64,000 bases of DNA from an uncultured Gemmatimonadales bacterium. Its GTDB lineage: Bacteria > Gemmatimonadota > Gemmatimonadetes > Gemmatimonadales > GWC2-71-9. Under the pieces are notes generated by a model, which saw only the letters and a program-made list of their open reading frames with translations, did no database searches and was not told the DNA's origin. The stretch is from contig CAVZZO010000003.1 of the NCBI GenBank assembly GCA_963779755.1, forward strand, positions 960,001-1,024,000, read 5' to 3'. Below, piece after piece: positions 6,938-12,193 of this stretch. Each line of letters begins with the position of its first letter. Within the stretch, counting starts at the first letter, position 1. Position numbers and translations under genes: made by a program.

Positions 6938-8023
6938 TCAGGCCGCGAAGCTGGCCAGCGCCCTCCCCACGTCGCCCTCGCGCAGCCGCTTGAGCGCCCG
7001 GTCGCGCAGCTGGCGCACGCGCTCGCGGGTGACGCCCAGCATGCCGCCGATCTCTTCCAGGGTGTGTTCCCGCCCGCCGTCGAGGCCGAAGTAGAGCCGC
7101 AGGACCCTGGCATCGCGCGGCGGCAGGGTGGCCAGGGCGGTTTCGATCTCTTCGGAGAGGAACCGATCCATGGCTTCTTCTTCGGCATCGCCCTGGTCCT
7201 CGGCGATGAAGCGGTCGATCAGGGAGCGGTCGCCCTCGGGATCGAGGGGCGCGTCGAGCCGGACGTCGGCGGTATTGAGCGCCGCCAGCGACTGCACCAC
7301 GTCCAGCGACAGCCCGGTGCTGTGCGCGATCTCCTCGGGCGTGGGCTCGCGGCGCAGCTCCTGGCGCAACGCCTCGGAGGTGCGGATGATGCGCGAGAGG
7401 TCGGCCGTGCGGTTGAGCGGGACGCGCACCGTGCGCCCCTGCCGGGCCAGGGAGGCGAGAATCGCCTGGCGGATCCACCACACCGCATAGCTGATGAACT
7501 TGACTCCCTGATCAGGATCGAACTTCCGTGCCGCCGTCATCAGGCCGACGTTGCCCTCCCCGATCAGATCGGTGAGGGCCAGGCCGCGGTTCTGGTACTT
7601 CTTGGCCACGGAAATGACGAAGCGGAGATTGCGCTTGACCAGTTCCTGCATCGCCTCCTGGTCGCCCGACTGCACCCGTCGGGCGATGGCGATCTCCTGC
7701 GGCTGGGTCAGCAGGGGCGTCTTGCTGACTTCGTAGAGATACTGGTCGAGGATGTCGCGATCGGCATCGTAGACGCCCAGGCTCCTGGCCGTCTCCCGCT
7801 TGGCCTTGCGCTTGCGGGGCGAGGGGATGTCGCGCAGGATATCCGCCAGCGAGGTGCCGTCGGGGAAGCGCACCGCGGATTCCTCGATCGGGGTCATTCC
7901 GCCACCGCCGGGCGTGCCCGCGCCCGAGGCGGGGACCGGCTCCGGCGCGGGCGGCTGCTCTGCGCGGTGGGAGCCGGCGCGACCCGCACCGGACTTGGCA
8001 TCCCTGGAGGACTTCTTTTTCAT
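6938..8023 (-). CDS. RNA polymerase sigma-70 factor, RpoD/SigA/RpoS group (start uncertain)
   Basis: Region 1.2 (LDQYLYEV), region 2 (NLRFVISVAKKY...KFISYAVWWIRQAI), region 3 and region 4 (TLEEIG...VTRERVRQL). Confidence 0.93.
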   Translation of the reverse strand: MKKKSSRDAKSGAGRAGSHRAEQPPAPEPVPASGAGTPGGGGMTPIEESAVRFPDGTSLADILRDIPSPRKRKAKRETARSLGVYDADRDILDQYLYEVSKTPLLTQPQEIAIARRVQSGDQEAMQELVKRNLRFVISVAKKYQNRGLALTDLIGEGNVGLMTAARKFDPDQGVKFISYAVWWIRQAILASLARQGRTVRVPLNRTADLSRIIRTSEALRQELRREPTPEEIAHSTGLSLDVVQSLAALNTADVRLDAPLDPEGDRSLIDRFIAEDQGDAEEEAMDRFLSEEIETALATLPPRDARVLRLYFGLDGGREHTLEEIGGMLGVTRERVRQLRDRALKRLREGDVGRALASFAA

Positions 8024-8070
8024 CAAAGGCGTTCCTACTGCGAAACGGATGCCAGAGGGTGCATCCGTGC

Positions 8071-8099
8071 TTGACACTCGTTCAGCCGGAAACTAGCTT
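8071..8099 (+). promoter_or_regulatory. Sigma-70 promoter for tRNA-Ala
   Basis: TTGACA-N17-TAGCTT. Confidence 0.7.
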
Positions 8100-8143
8100 C
8101 TCGTGCTCGCCCGACTCCGCTTTCTCGGGCGCGCTAATATAAT

Positions 8144-8216
8144 GGGGGCGTAGCTCAGTTGGGAGAGCGCGTGAATGGCATTCACGAGGTCAGGGGTTCG
8201 ACCCCCCTCGCCTCCA
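8144..8216 (+). tRNA. tRNA-Ala(GGC)
   Basis: Cloverleaf with anticodon GGC, G3:U70 identity pair and TTCGA T-loop. Confidence 0.96.
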
Positions 8217-8264
8217 CTGAGGGCGGATGGGTGGTCAGCCGGTCGGGCAGTCGGTGGATAGCAA

Positions 8265-8293
8265 TTGCATGCCTCAGGCGTGCACGCTAGAAT
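8265..8293 (+). promoter_or_regulatory. Sigma-70 promoter for the tRNA-Gly/fMet/Val/Arg cluster
   Basis: TTGCAT-N17-TAGAAT, 12 bp before tRNA-Gly. Confidence 0.7.
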
Positions 8294-8305
8294 CCCGGTG
8301 GCCAC

Positions 8306-8378
8306 GCGGGAATAGCTCAGTTGGTAGAGCACAACCTTGCCAAGGTTGGGGTCGCGGGTTCGAGTCCCGTTTCCCGCT
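8306..8378 (+). tRNA. tRNA-Gly(GCC)
   Basis: GCGGGAA/TTCCCGC acceptor stem, anticodon GCC. Confidence 0.97.
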
Positions 8379-8416
8379 CTCGCAAGACGGCAGGACGGCA
8401 GGATGGCAGGTAACGG

Positions 8417-8490
8417 CGCGGGGTGGAGCAGTCTGGTAGCTCGCCGGGCTCATAACCCGGAGGTCGTGGGTTCAAATCCCACCCCCGCTA
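8417..8490 (+). tRNA. Initiator tRNA-fMet(CAT)
   Basis: Anticodon CAT, three G-C pairs in the anticodon stem, unpaired C1:U72. Confidence 0.96.
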
Positions 8491-8492
8491 TT

Positions 8493-8580
8493 GGCGGTAA
8501 GGGCGGTACCGGCGGTAAGGGCGGTAGGGAACTCGTTGCGCTGCGACGACGTCTCTACCGCCCTTCCCGCCCCTACCGCC
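8493..8580. repeat. Nonamer inverted array (GGCGGTAnn)x4 ... (nnTACCGCC)x3 in the tRNA spacer
   Basis: ggcggtaag ggcggtacc ggcggtaag ggcggtagg faces ctaccgccc ttcccgccc ctaccgcc. Confidence 0.75.
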
Positions 8581-8591
8581 GCGCCCCGCTT

Positions 8592-8665
8592 GGGCGGTTA
8601 GCTCAGTTGGTTAGAGCGCCACGTTGACATCGTGGAGGCCACAAGTTCGAGTCTTGTACCGCCCA
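8592..8665 (+). tRNA. tRNA-Val(GAC)
   Basis: GGGCGGT/ACCGCCC acceptor stem, anticodon GAC. Confidence 0.96.
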
Positions 8666-8666
8666 T

Positions 8667-8740
8667 GCGCTCTTAGCTCAATTGGATAGAGCATCTGACT
8701 ACGGATCAGAAGGTTGGGGGTTCGAGTCCCTCAGAGCGCG
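8667..8740 (+). tRNA. tRNA-Arg(ACG)
   Basis: GCGCTCT/AGAGCGC acceptor stem, anticodon ACG; 1 nt after tRNA-Val. Confidence 0.96.
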
Positions 8741-9052
8741 CTTGACGCGGCACTCGTGTAACTGACGCCCCGGGGCCACAGCGGAAGCCACGGCCCCGGG
8801 GGTGCGTGGCTTCCGGACAGCGCGACGGACGGCTACCGGCCGCGCTCATCGGATGACGAACGCAGCCGGCCAGGGGGTTATCCCCCAACCGGGGGCCCCA
8901 CCGCGCTTCGCGTTTTCCTGTCCCGCTGTTTTCCCGAAGCTTCTTATCCCCTCCCCTGAGACCCTGCAGGCCCGCTACGCCGACCCCCGGTTGATTTCCT
9001 CCCTGAGGCACCGCAGTTTCCGCCCCCGTCAACTCACCCCGGGGCGCCCTCC

Positions 9053-9571
9053 GTGAGCCACACCGTCATCATCATCCTGCGTATCCTGCACATCGGGGCC
9101 GGCGTGTTCTGGGCCGGCGCCGTCTTCTTCCTGGCACGATTCCTGGGGCCCACCGCGGACAAGCTGGGTATCGCCGCGGCCCCGGTGATGCGGGAACTGG
9201 TCGAGGTGCGCCGGCTCAACGCCGCCCTCGCCGGCTCGGCCGTCATCACGGTAGTCGCCGGGACATTACTCTACTGGAACAACGTTGCGGCCTCCCATGG
9301 CGCCTGGGCTCGTTCGAGACCGGGCCAGGTCTTCGGCCTCGGGGCCGCGTGCGCGGTCGTAGCGCTGGTGATCGGCGCAACGGTCAACTCGCCCACCGCT
9401 GCGCGGATGACGAAACTCGTCGCCTCGGTGCAAAGCGCGGGCGACCCACCGTCGGCCGGGCAGCAGGCGGAGATGCAGCGCCTGCAGCGCCGGCTGGCGG
9501 GCGCGACAGGGATCGTGGCGGTCCTGCTTGCGGTGACCGTCCTCGCCATGGCGAGCGCCCGCTACCTGTAA
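9053..9571 (+). CDS. Four-TM membrane protein of unknown function
   Basis: [14 protein letters not shown] start typical of DUF2269/CopD-like membrane proteins; four hydrophobic segments. Confidence 0.75.
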
Positions 9572-9594
9572 CAGCGGATCGAAAGGCAGGGATC

Positions 9595-10341
9595 ATGAAA
9601 CGGCTCGTATTGCTGCGGCACGGCGAGAGCGTCTGGAACCGGGAAAACCGCTTCACCGGCTGGACCGACGTCGGCCTGTCGGAAAAGGGCATCGCCGAGG
9701 CGATCCAGGCCGGCGTGACGCTCCGCGACGCGGGCTACCTCTTTGATGTCGCCTACACCTCGGTCCTGAAGCGCGCCATCAAGACCCTCTGGCTCGCGCT
9801 GGAAGAGATGGACCTCATGTGGATCCCGGTGCGCCGCAGCTGGCGACTCAACGAGCGCCACTACGGGGCGCTCCAGGGCCTCAACAAGGCCGAGACGGCG
9901 GAGCAGCACGGCGAAGCCCAGGTGAAGATCTGGCGCCGGAGCTACGACATCCGCCCGCCGGCTCTCACGCCGGACGACCCGCGCTTCCCGGGCAACGATC
10001 CCCGCTACGCGAAGCTGCGGCCCGGCGAGCTGCCGCTCACCGAATGCCTGAAGGACACGGTGGAGCGCTTCCTCCCCTACTGGCACCAGGAGATCGCCCC
10101 GGCGATCGAACGGGGCGACCGGGTGCTGATCGCCGCCCACGGCAACAGCCTCCGGGCACTGATCAAGTACCTGGACAATATCTCGGATGAGGAGATCGTC
10201 GGGCTCAACGTACCCACCGGCATTCCACTGGTCTACGAGCTGAACGACGATCTGACCCCGATCCGGAGCTACTACCTGGGCGACCAGGAGGCGGTGCAGG
10301 CCGCCCAGCAGGCGGTGGCGGCGCAGGGGAAGAAGGCCTAG
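9595..10341 (+). CDS. gpmA: 2,3-bisphosphoglycerate-dependent phosphoglycerate mutase
   Basis: [26 protein letters not shown] and [10 protein letters not shown] motifs. Confidence 0.97.
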
Positions 10342-10348
10342 CAACGGG

Positions 10349-10377
10349 TGGCAATAGGCTGGTGCGCCGGTTACATT
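10349..10377 (+). promoter_or_regulatory. Putative sigma-70 promoter reading into the repeat array and tRNA-Pro
   Basis: TGGCAA-N17-TACATT, followed by a GC-rich discriminator. Confidence 0.55.
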
Positions 10378-10386
10378 CCGCGCCCG

Positions 10387-10797
10387 CGCAGGACGGCCCT
10401 AAAGGACTTCCTCGCGGCTCTTATTGGAGGCCGCTCGGTCGCAGGACGGCAGGACGGCCCTAAAGGACTTCCTCGCGGCTCTTATTGGAGGCCGCTCGGT
10501 CGCAGGACGGCCCTAAAGGACTTCCTCGCGGCTCTTATTGGAGGCCGCTCGGTCGCAGGACGGCCCTAAAGGACTTCCTCGCGGCTCTTATTGGAGGCCG
10601 CTCGGTCGCAGGACGGCCCTAAAGGACTTCCTCGCGGCTCTTATTGGAGGCCGCTCGGTCGCAGGACGGCCCTAAAGGACTTCCTCGCGGCTCTTATTGG
10701 AGGCCGCTCGGTCGCAGGACGGCAGGACGGCAGGACGGCAGGACGGCAGGACGGCAGGACGGCAGGACGGCAGGACGGCAGGACGGCAGGACGGCAG
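10387..10797 (+). repeat. Composite tandem array: six 53-bp units then (GCAGGACG)x10
   Basis: Units start at 10387, 10440 (carries one extra octamer), 10501, 10554, 10607 and 10660; pure octamer run 10714-10793. Confidence 0.95.
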
Positions 10798-10843
10798 CCA
10801 GAAAATACCAGGCTGATGGCTAATAGCCTGCAGCTTCGGTCCA

Positions 10844-10918
10844 CGGGGCGTAGCGCAGTCCGGTCAGCGCGCCTGCTTCGGGAGCAGGAGGTCCCCGGTT
10901 CAAATCCGGGCGCCCCGA
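10844..10918 (+). tRNA. tRNA-Pro(CGG)
   Basis: CGGGGCG/CGCCCCG acceptor stem, anticodon CGG. Confidence 0.96.
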
Positions 10919-10924
10919 TAGGAA

Positions 10925-10967
10925 GACGGGAGCAGGACGGGAGGGCCGTCCTGCTCCCGTCATTTTT
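10925..10967 (+). terminator. Intrinsic terminator after tRNA-Pro
   Basis: 16-bp perfect stem GACGGGAGCAGGACGG/CCGTCCTGCTCCCGTC followed by ATTTTT. Confidence 0.8.
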
Positions 10968-11523
10968 CCATCCTGTTCGCGCCAGCTTCCTCGCTCTGCC
11001 GTCCTGCTCCCGGCAGCACGATATCCTCCAGAAAGAACGCCGCGAGCTCCGCCCGGCCCTGCAGGCGCGATTTCTGATAGACCGCCACGGCGTGCTGCCG
11101 CACGGTGCGCTCGCTGCGCCCGGTGGCGGCGGCGATCTGCTTGTGGCCGTGCCCCTTGAGCAGCATGAGCGCCACCTCCCGCTCCGCCGGCGTGAGCTGC
11201 CACGCCGTGAACTGGTCGTTCACCGCCCGGCCCAGCCCTTCCAGCGCCCGTTCCGCCCGTTCCCGCCAGGCGTCCCGTTCCGCCTGGCGCTCGGTCAGAC
11301 TGCGCCGCAGCGAAGCGGCCGACCGCTCCGCCCGCCCCCATCCCCGCCACAACCAGGCTGTGGTTGCCAGCCCGGCGGCGATCAGGGCCAGCTCATAGAG
11401 CACATGGATCGAGAGCCAGGAGTCCGGCGCATCCAGGGCCAGGTCCAGCATCCCACCGCCTGCGATGGCCAGCAGCAGCACGGTGAGCGGTACGCGGACC
11501 TGTTTCGGCGTGAGTTCGGTCAT
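10960..11523 (-). CDS. Membrane-anchored LuxR-family HTH regulator
   Basis: Two N-terminal TM helices, a coiled coil, and LTPAEREVALMLLKGHGHKQIAA...SERTVRQH. Confidence 0.88.
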   Translation of the reverse strand: MTELTPKQVRVPLTVLLLAIAGGGMLDLALDAPDSWLSIHVLYELALIAAGLATTAWLWRGWGRAERSAASLRRSLTERQAERDAWRERAERALEGLGRAVNDQFTAWQLTPAEREVALMLLKGHGHKQIAAATGRSERTVRQHAVAVYQKSRLQGRAELAAFFLEDIVLPGAGRQSEEAGANRMEK

Positions 11524-11659
11524 CAGGGGCTCCGGAGCACTCCGTCATCTGCCGGGTACGGGGGGAAAATACGCCGGGTGGCCGGGATGCGTCGAATGTC
11601 GGATAGCGACGGCGGCGCCAGGCTGCCATGATCGGGCAACCTTCAACCGGAGCCGTACC

Positions 11660-12193
11660 ATGTTGCCTGATCCTCTGCACCCGGCGATCGTCCACTTCCC
11701 CGTGGTGCTGATGTTCCTTCTGCCCCTCGTGGCCCTGGCCACACTCTGGCGCATCCGCCGCGGTGCCTCCCCACTCCGCGCCTGGGCGATTACCGTCGCG
11801 GTCGCCGCAGCGCTCGCGCTCAGCGCCTGGGCCGCGGTACAGACAGGCGAGACCCAGATGGAGCGGGTCGAGGACGCCATGGCCGAGGCGCCCCTGGAGA
11901 ACCACGAAGAGATGGCCGAACGATTCCTCGCCCTTTCGGTTGGACTGCTGATCCTGAGCGGGGCGGGACTGTTCCGCGGCCGGGTGGGATCGGTGGCGCG
12001 GGGCGTGGCCGCGGTCGGCACCTTCGGCCTGCTGGCGGCCGGCGTCCCGGTGGGCCACTCGGGCGGCCAGCTGGTGTACCGCTACGGCGCGGCCTCGGCG
12101 TACATCGCCAGCACCGGAAGCGGCGCGCCCGGCACAGCCGGGAGCCCGAATGCGGAGCAGGGCGCTCGCGGGCGGGACAGGGACGGGGACTAA
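11660..12193 (+). CDS. DUF2231-like membrane protein
   Basis: PLHPAIVHFP start, TGE...HEE and GHSGGQLVYRYG motifs. Confidence 0.82.
   Translation: MLPDPLHPAIVHFPVVLMFLLPLVALATLWRIRRGASPLRAWAITVAVAAALALSAWAAVQTGETQMERVEDAMAEAPLENHEEMAERFLALSVGLLILSGAGLFRGRVGSVARGVAAVGTFGLLAAGVPVGHSGGQLVYRYGAASAYIASTGSGAPGTAGSPNAEQGARGRDRDGD

Follow-up and report, generated by a model that had tools for sequence, protein, structure and literature searches.

We analysed a 64,000-nucleotide stretch of the genome of an uncultured Gemmatimonadales soil bacterium (the window, G000:C3:960001-1024000), in which a 45-nt cassette is repeated within an octamer microsatellite. The source genome, G000, comprises 4.23 Mb in four contigs at 68.5% G+C. 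At positions 10389-10797 of the window, six junctions of a perfect (CAGGACGG)n array are filled by identical 45-mers in a single phase. The cassette belongs to a family dispersed over the genome, sits at a constant junction, occurs at filled and empty sites, includes one copy nested in another, has been amplified locally, and covaries in its inner hairpin (P3). The finding is real, amounts to more than a variable number tandem repeat (VNTR), and is not specific to the neighboring tRNA gene. We read the cassette, with somewhat better than even confidence, as a mobile, miniature, non-autonomous insertion element, similar to repetitive extragenic palindromes (REPs) and palindrome-associated transposable elements (PATEs), that targets microsatellite junctions and is then amplified locally.

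Dispersal, junctions and structure of the cassette

The 45-mer starts at 10397, 10458, 10511, 10564, 10617 and 10670 on the + strand (exact matches, n = 6), and 0 of 100 shuffles contained a match, which makes its chance expectation nil. The array opens with one octamer (10389-10396), whose last CGG forms the 5' half of the outer stem (P1) in the RNAalifold fold. It continues with cassette copy 1 (10397-10441), which scored 74.3 bits against a covariance model (CM R1) built from 23 sequences, and with two adjacent octamers forming an empty junction (10442-10457). Copies 2 to 6 follow (10458-10502, 10511-10555, 10564-10608, 10617-10661, and 10670-10714, + strand), all recovered by exact match and by CM R1. 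Ten bare octamers (10715-10794) plus CAG complete the array. Tandem Repeats Finder (TRF) agreed with this layout, reporting a period of 53 with 5.2 copies at 10449-10723 and a period of 8 with 10.5 copies at 10714-10797, both with 100% matches. The preliminary description of this DNA had given the same arrangement of six identical 45-mers, one empty junction and ten bare octamers, and it stands. The search it proposed for dispersed copies in a fixed phase returned 50 copies at 34 loci, all in one phase, and the uniqueness of the 45-mer to this locus that it had allowed for does not hold, as 33 other loci carry the cassette.

The 50 copies were found in G000 by a profile search (nhmmer, E < 0.001) and comprise 48 full and 2 truncated cassettes on both large contigs, with 37 distinct sequences among them. 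Their ends are nearly invariant (GGCCCTRAAGGACTTCCTCGCGGC and GCCGCTCGGTCGCAGGACGG), and the center splits into two classes. At all 34 loci, CARGRCGG-like units lie on both sides in the cassette's own orientation, with a median of two octamer-like units upstream and two downstream. The position of the cassette within the arrays showed no asymmetry (Wilcoxon p = 0.65). G000 holds about 926 tandem arrays of period 6-11, built from 315 different units; the commonest family is CAGGACGG, with 71 arrays and 37 more of close variants (about 108 of 926), and among all these arrays the cassettes are confined to this family.

Copies at the same locus resemble each other far more than copies at different loci. 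Within loci, 21 of 26 cassette pairs were identical (mean edit distance 0.42), against 54 of 1009 pairs between loci (mean 4.38); these counts take in 46 of the 48 full copies, two being left out. Direct tandems of two to six cassettes occur at eight loci, the window's included, and their copies are spaced by whole octamers, namely one, two or three. Since identity within loci is far above that between loci, the six window copies are best read as the in-situ amplification of a 53-bp unit, six being the assembly count. Exactly identical variants are common to six, four and two loci, and the variant of the window was found again at C3:1632762. Locus C1:1394708 holds two very different variants, which indicates that separate arrivals also happen.

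One of the two truncated cassettes, consisting of the 5' 22 nt only (G000:C3:1424213-1424238), abuts the apparent stop codon of a convergent gene on the opposite strand. A dispersed repeat, TGCTGTCACCCTGAGCG.AGCGAAGGGGCCGAAGC, lies about 10-60 nt past the cassette arrays at C1:540532, C1:1315535, C1:2021446, C3:581113, and C3:1461388, and a related repeat begins with TGCTGTCATTGCGAG.

The junction is the same in other genomes and in other host repeats. In one related genus (g8), cassettes sit in phase within (CAGGCGGA)n, (CAGACGGG)n, (CAGGCGGG)n, and (CAGCCGGG)n arrays. In the relatives G081, G142 and G116, and in the metagenome locus L224, the cassette lies within an unrelated hairpin-plus-G-tail repeat, at GGGGGA^CAGGGGGTTAGG. 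A pattern search for this host repeat gave 54 matches in G000, all empty (one spans two copies), 8 empty matches in G142, and 10 empty matches plus one filled with a 26-nt insert in G081; longer inserts of 32 nt are also present at this junction. Apart from one ambiguous C, the insert is the sole difference between filled and empty host repeats, and no target-site duplication was found. Terminal inverted repeats were likewise absent, the 5' end, CCCTAAAGGAC, being unrelated to the complement of the 3' end, CGACCGAGCGG. For the 46 copies outside G000, the base at -1 was a purine in 46, at -2 a G in 33, and at -3 a G in 32; at +1 it was a C in 42 and at +3 a G in 40. The junction is thus GGR^CNG, as at all G000 loci. 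In a minority class, CCGAG stands upstream and is able to pair with CTCGG of the 3' end.

Comparison of an orthologous gene trailer in three g8 species gave one filled/empty case: the cassette is present in G007, within (CAGGCGGA)n, and G151 and G097 have only G-rich octamer-like repeats behind the same stop codon. Between G081 and G142, synteny ends right at a cassette. The same junction and orientation, the lack of duplication, the filled and empty sites, and the nested copy together form the signature of a small inserted element whose target is short and strand-specific. In an octamer array this target recurs with every unit, and the fixed phase of the cassettes follows from that. The earlier suggestion of a tiny, non-autonomous element with short tandem repeats as its target agrees with the dispersal, the fixed phase and orientation, the constant GGR^CNG junction, and the filled and empty versions.

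In G000, most of the 54 matches to the hairpin-plus-G-tail repeat (GGAAGGGGGACAGGGGGTTAGG) crowd into about 40 kb (C3:1425890-1464011) on one strand, often 80-210 bp apart; cassette loci C3:1424213, 1442586, and 1461388 lie in or beside that region.

Across genomes, the cassette is built from two conserved parts, GGR-CCCTRAAGGACTYCCTCGC and GCTCGGTCG-CNG, with P3 between them, which may be missing or take up as much as about 60 nt. Whole units are 26-99 nt long, with GCTCGGTCG(C) as the 3' end, and the unpaired 5' segment is the most conserved part. Short forms include 37-nt units in G081, G142 and G116, a 29-nt unit in G142, and the 26-nt insert in G081. The 99-nt cassette (L175:1501-1599, G116:C473:3151-3249) carries a second, minimal cassette (CCCTAAAGGGATTCCCTTCGGTC) nested inside its P3. 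The RNAalifold consensus consists of an outer CGGCC/GGUCG stem (P1), a 3-pair AGG-ACUU-CCU hairpin (P2), and a GCGGC...GCCGC hairpin (P3). The fold in the preliminary description agrees in the outer stem and the GCGGC...GCCGC hairpin; its middle hairpin of four pairs and a 2-nt loop is replaced by the 3-pair form.

We aligned 57 distinct sequences to the model, a fit that favors structure, and found both sides changed in 36 cells; shuffled alignments gave 11.2 +/- 2.6, and 0 of 500 reached the observed value. Paired cells made up 91.9%, and six of the eight P3 pairs covary. In the same 57 sequences, P2 showed no covariation, and neither did P1 (GRCC/GGUC), whose changes are one-sided only (GU 37, AU 15, GC 3). 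About 7% of the cells are G-U pairs, which on the opposite strand would be mismatched, an indication that folding takes place on the + strand. The fold of a single unit is no better than that of shuffled sequence (z = +0.14 sense, -1.06 antisense), and a search of window positions 8000-12000 against Rfam 15 (E <= 1) placed only tRNAs above threshold and nothing over the cassettes.

In the Gemmatimonadales family to which G000 belongs, CM R1 matched 12 of 150 other genomes, spread over eight other genera. In a sample of the phylum, it matched 6 of 71 genomes belonging to the family and 0 of 79 that belong to eleven other families. With BLAST, the cassette was seen in one of 40 relatives, G007. 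A 19-nt pattern for the 5' core occurred in 21 of the 150 family genomes, 14 of them with at least two copies, and its reversed control gave 8 matches across all 151 genomes. The best-assembled relative (G081, six contigs) had 12 matches to this core, against 41 in G000. All of these distribution figures are lower bounds, as most relatives are fragmented metagenome-assembled genomes (MAGs) with under-assembled repeats. A gapped exact pattern recovered the cassette from 19 metagenome contigs and gave 0 matches in viral contigs; plasmids gave no BLAST match. A 17-mer scan was unspecific, as only 2 of its 117 stretches held a full cassette. Two cassette-bearing records are labelled as Gemmatimonadota MAGs. 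As judged from these searches, the cassette family is lineage-restricted.

Proposed mechanism and competing explanations

If the cassette is a mobile element, the unit would integrate in one orientation, without inverted ends or duplication, and its target on the G-rich strand would be GGR^C(A/G/C)G. This junction would be supplied once per unit by the G-rich octamer microsatellites behind genes of this lineage, so that cassettes would land in phase. In the window, the cassette and one octamer (53 bp) would then have been amplified to six by slipped-strand or unequal exchange between the flanking octamers. Insertion would be enzymatic and take place on single-stranded DNA. We infer that a Y1/HUH enzyme acting in trans on single-stranded DNA is the most economical mechanism, because there are no inverted ends or duplications, the orientation next to a short target is fixed, and the strand can fold. 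A HUH/Y1 transposase is thus the candidate enzyme; G000 has three Y1 genes, none with a link to the cassette. The inserted hairpin would probably also act as a REP-like structure in the 3' untranslated region (3' UTR).

The mobile-element reading has several points against it. Two of the three Y1 (PF01797) genes are copies of a 550-bp IS200-like element, neither end of which, left or right, is related to the cassette. The single gene resembling a REP-associated tyrosine transposase (RAYT), at C1:953122-953562, is flanked by other hairpins, namely direct copies of a two-hairpin module of about 48 nt, GGCTGAAGCC and CTTCACTGAAGTGAAG (L150:1363-1977, G000:C1:952990-953604). CM R1 detected no cassette at the three Y1 loci of G000 or at five Y1 loci of relatives, the best score being 16.7 bits (E 0.082). 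A RAYT-like homologue co-occurs with the cassette only weakly, being present in 10 of the 12 genomes with cassettes and in 66 of the 138 others; these genomes are related to one another, the total of 76 of 150 includes the unpublished G149, and we take the co-occurrence as a weak hint. There is no replication-strand bias (14 + and 7 - on C1, 7 + and 6 - on C3). In addition, gene conversion between octamer arrays could explain the spread within G000 alone, no movement was seen, and the single orthologous filled/empty case may just as well reflect a loss. The upstream GGR is also part of stem P1 and could be conserved for structural reasons and not as a target. The copy number of six comes from the assembly only, and the distribution figures are minima, given the under-assembled repeats of the MAGs.

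No copy of the 19-nt 5' core or its complement, with up to two mismatches, was found in G000 outside the cassettes, which implies no autonomous master and no obvious antisense partner there. As a separate observation, the Y1 genes of relatives carry hairpins similar to those of the two-hairpin module, with TGAA or TAAA loops, and such hairpins neighbor cassettes in some relatives.

More tentatively, and as a possibility we put at below even, the cassette may by itself suffice as a substrate for single-strand DNA transposition and home to microsatellite junctions. Its minimal active form would be about 26-37 nt, and its landing pads would be the G-rich octamer arrays, where single strands or two-tetrad quadruplexes may be exposed. 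In that case no mobile DNA unit described so far would be smaller, and the cassette would join long simple-sequence repeats and REP-like hairpins, so far separate phenomena.

Among the alternatives to a mobile element, the one that survives best, and which we still consider rather unlikely, sees in the cassette above all a structured RNA module that acts in cis in 3' UTRs. It would be REP-like in its roles (mRNA 3'-end protection, termination, or translation-termination coupling) and maintained by selection, with its spread secondary. The placement of cassettes bears directly on this explanation. Gene positions were taken from a home-made coding-potential caller, which is imperfect, and the counts leave out three cassette loci and 38 of 96 bare arrays that were called inside genes, the bare arrays probably because the T-free octamer carries no stop codon. 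On these counts, 13 of 31 cassette loci and 19 of 58 bare arrays have a co-oriented upstream gene whose stop codon lies no more than 15 nt from the start of the array, and the array abuts the stop of a convergent gene at 0 of 31 and 5 of 58, respectively. The CAGGACGG octamer contains no T, and its own strand therefore cannot supply a stop codon; TAGGACGG is one change away from the octamer unit. Beyond the frequent proximity to co-oriented stop codons and the lack of convergent neighbors, the RNA module gains from the copies in relatives and the metagenome, which lie 0-25 nt past stop codons, from the covariation of P3, from the G-U pairs that favor the sense strand, and from the strong conservation of the unpaired 5' segment. 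In the available text of a study of Xanthomonas (PMC4692102), G-rich sense-strand repeats by stop codons are reported to be transcribed.

However, cassette-bearing and bare arrays are alike in gene orientation, the upstream gene being co-oriented at 19 of 31 and 35 of 58, which indicates that the cassette follows the array and has no orientation signal of its own. The upstream gene is not co-oriented at the other 12 of the 31 cassette loci. The unremarkable fold of the single unit and the lack of covariation in P1 and P2 also speak against an RNA role, and such a role leaves the filled/empty pairs and the nested copy unexplained.

An origin by recombination only is, in our judgment, unlikely. 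After arising once in an octamer array, the cassette would have spread from array to array by homologous recombination or gene conversion, with the octamers as homology, together with slippage and without insertion machinery. All 50 G000 copies lie in register in one octamer family, their tandem spacing is always in whole octamers, identical variants are shared by several loci, and no enzyme is linked to the cassette, all of which fits such copying. Many copies, however, have only one or two octamer-like units per side, which leaves a homology of 8-16 bp. The cassettes of relatives in other octamers and in an unrelated repeat, at the same junction, are not predicted by homology-driven copying, and the copy nested inside another cassette's hairpin also tells against it.

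The preliminary description had offered, as a second possibility, a tandemly amplified structured RNA of the tRNA-Pro leader, co-transcribed from a TGGCAA/TACATT promoter and released by pre-tRNA processing, which we now regard as very improbable. The array does lie 46 nt upstream of tRNA-Pro on the same strand, and a terminator-like hairpin follows the tRNA. However, a tRNA gene lies within 150 nt at only 3 of the 34 cassette loci, with the array trailing the tRNA in two of the three, and at most loci the cassette lies behind protein genes; the tRNA-leader reading is thus untypical of the family. The proposed promoter, TGGCAA-N17-TACATT, is present as sequence (10349-10377, + strand), 11 nt before the array, but it matches only 7 of 12 consensus positions, and a promoter scan of 10200-11100 returned 0 promoter-like sites. 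The window array is more simply read, as are other G000 arrays, as the 3' trailer of the gpmA-like gene that precedes it; at 13 of 31 cassette loci, the array borders the stop of a gene in the same orientation.

A plain VNTR or an assembly artefact, to which the 100% identity of the six copies might point, is very improbable as well, given the cassettes at 33 other loci, in at least 12 other genomes and on 19 metagenome contigs, and the multi-copy arrays with other spacings at seven other loci.

Comparison with known repeat systems

REPs and bacterial interspersed mosaic elements (BIMEs) of enterobacteria are short, dispersed, extragenic, imperfect palindromes that often lie past stop codons, and BIME-2 forms tandem arrays. 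The cassette resembles them in being extragenic, in its tens of dispersed copies, in its frequent position past stop codons, and in its lineage-specific variants. A REP is an imperfect palindrome of 20-40 bp with many extragenic copies, and the cassette agrees with this (50 copies at 34 loci, with a covarying P3). Unlike REPs and BIMEs, it has a long conserved unpaired 5' arm (CCCTRAAGGACTYCC) and an inner hairpin that is very variable in length and sometimes absent. The cassette and its one to three octamer linkers form a tandem mosaic, repeated two to six times at eight loci, which recalls BIMEs in architecture only; unlike in BIMEs, the linkers are a true microsatellite and the unit keeps a fixed phase. 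According to the available text of one study (PMC3733652), REPs are further marked by a tetranucleotide, GTAG or CGTC, that stands unpaired beside the palindrome at one end. The cassette lacks such a tag: P3 is bordered by CCTC/TCGG on the + strand and by CCGA/GAGG on the - strand, and CGTC occurs near the cassette only inside the complement of the flanking octamer.

In REPIN/RAYT systems, a Y1 (HUH) transposase encoded in single copy is believed to mobilise non-autonomous hairpin units in trans, without target duplication, and the RAYT gene is bordered by the REP that it moves. The cassette likewise has no target duplication, and G000 has a single RAYT-like Y1 gene. Unlike REPINs, the cassettes are single units in direct tandem and not inverted doublets, and they lie at none of the eight Y1 loci, that of the RAYT-like gene included. 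A classical MITE, or miniature inverted-repeat transposable element, differs from the cassette in having terminal inverted repeats and a target-site duplication.

IS200/IS605 elements and PATEs have no inverted ends, insert in a strand- and orientation-specific way next to a fixed target of 4-5 nt, carry subterminal hairpins, and show a bias towards the lagging-strand template. The cassette shares with them the single orientation at a short fixed target, the lack of duplication and of inverted ends, and the hairpin. It differs in that its ends do not derive from the resident IS200-like element, in having one hairpin or none instead of two, and in showing no lagging-strand bias; at 26-99 nt it is also far below the size of known PATEs. 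The cassette is therefore REP/BIME-like in architecture and placement and similar to IS200/IS605 miniatures in its insertion signature, and each of them has defining traits that it lacks.

Insertion sequences that target REPs have reportedly been found, and Dong, Waldo and Mino are microsatellite-specific retrotransposons of animals, of the type without long terminal repeats (non-LTR). As with the cassette, a repeated landing site leads to a fixed position within the repeat. Those elements, however, are autonomous, protein-coding and at least a kilobase long, whereas the cassette is non-coding, 26-99 nt long and bacterial. G-rich heptamer repeats are known from Xanthomonas and Nostoc (Rehm et al. 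2015, PMC4692102); unlike the arrays analysed here, they are described without an embedded hairpin cassette in the available text, and the paper has the word "hairpin" a single time, in its reference list.

We found no description of the cassette in the open-access literature on Gemmatimonadetes repeats, RAYT, heptamer repeats and repeat-targeting miniature elements. It is apparently an undescribed, small, non-autonomous, palindromic intergenic element, unusual in sitting in phase in microsatellites. REPs, BIMEs, MITEs and long simple-sequence repeats are usually handled as separate classes, and their spread is mostly unexplained. The cassette offers a tractable system for the movement of hairpin repeats, for microsatellites as landing pads, and for the effects of inserts on the 3' ends of messages. 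It is also a warning for annotation, as spacer "VNTRs" in Gemmatimonadales can be composites of two repeat systems.

Surroundings of the window array

The array follows a putative gpmA-like (phosphoglycerate mutase) open reading frame at 9349-10341 (+ strand; open reading frame list and home-made caller), the name gpmA coming from the preliminary description. Its stop codon, TAG, is at 10339-10341, and the array starts 47 nt further on. The last 199 amino acids of the predicted protein are 79-82% identical to proteins of two relatives. This gpmA-like type occurs in only 2 of 24 relatives (query 9742-10338, E <= 1e-30), and tRNA-Pro is its neighbor in neither. Among public sequencing runs, none of the 24 compared holds the locus; the share of sampled words was at most 0.05 and probably comes from the conserved tRNA.

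Downstream, tRNA-Pro (CGG) lies at 10844-10918 (+ strand; ARAGORN, and 68.2 bits with the Rfam tRNA model), and the distance of 46 nt from the array end agrees with that first given. It is followed by a terminator-like hairpin at 10925-10961 (+ strand), in which CAGGACGG at 10933-10940 pairs with its complement at 10946-10953 (16 pairs, 12 of them G-C) ahead of a T run. A second CCGTCCTG, the octamer complement, lies at 10999-11006 (+ strand), where TRF reported a period of 11 with 58% matches (10946-11012). Between tRNA-Gly and tRNA-Met, a short bare octamer array of 3-4 octamer-like units occupies 8382-8410 (+ strand; TRF, 90% matches). Both octamer occurrences noted earlier without a cassette, at this site and within the terminator-like hairpin, were seen.

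Two repeat arrangements around the tRNA genes complete the picture of the window. Between tRNA-Met and tRNA-Val lies a repeat-armed hairpin made up of (GGCGGTAAG)n at 8493-8526 and, as the approximate complement of that repeat, (CTACCGCCC)n at 8555-8580; the hairpin's matches to microRNA precursors in Rfam (8493-8580) are weak and all below threshold. The tRNA-Pro gene is itself bracketed by repeats, with the CAGGACGG array upstream and the complement, CCGTCCTG, downstream at 10946-10953 and 10999-11006.

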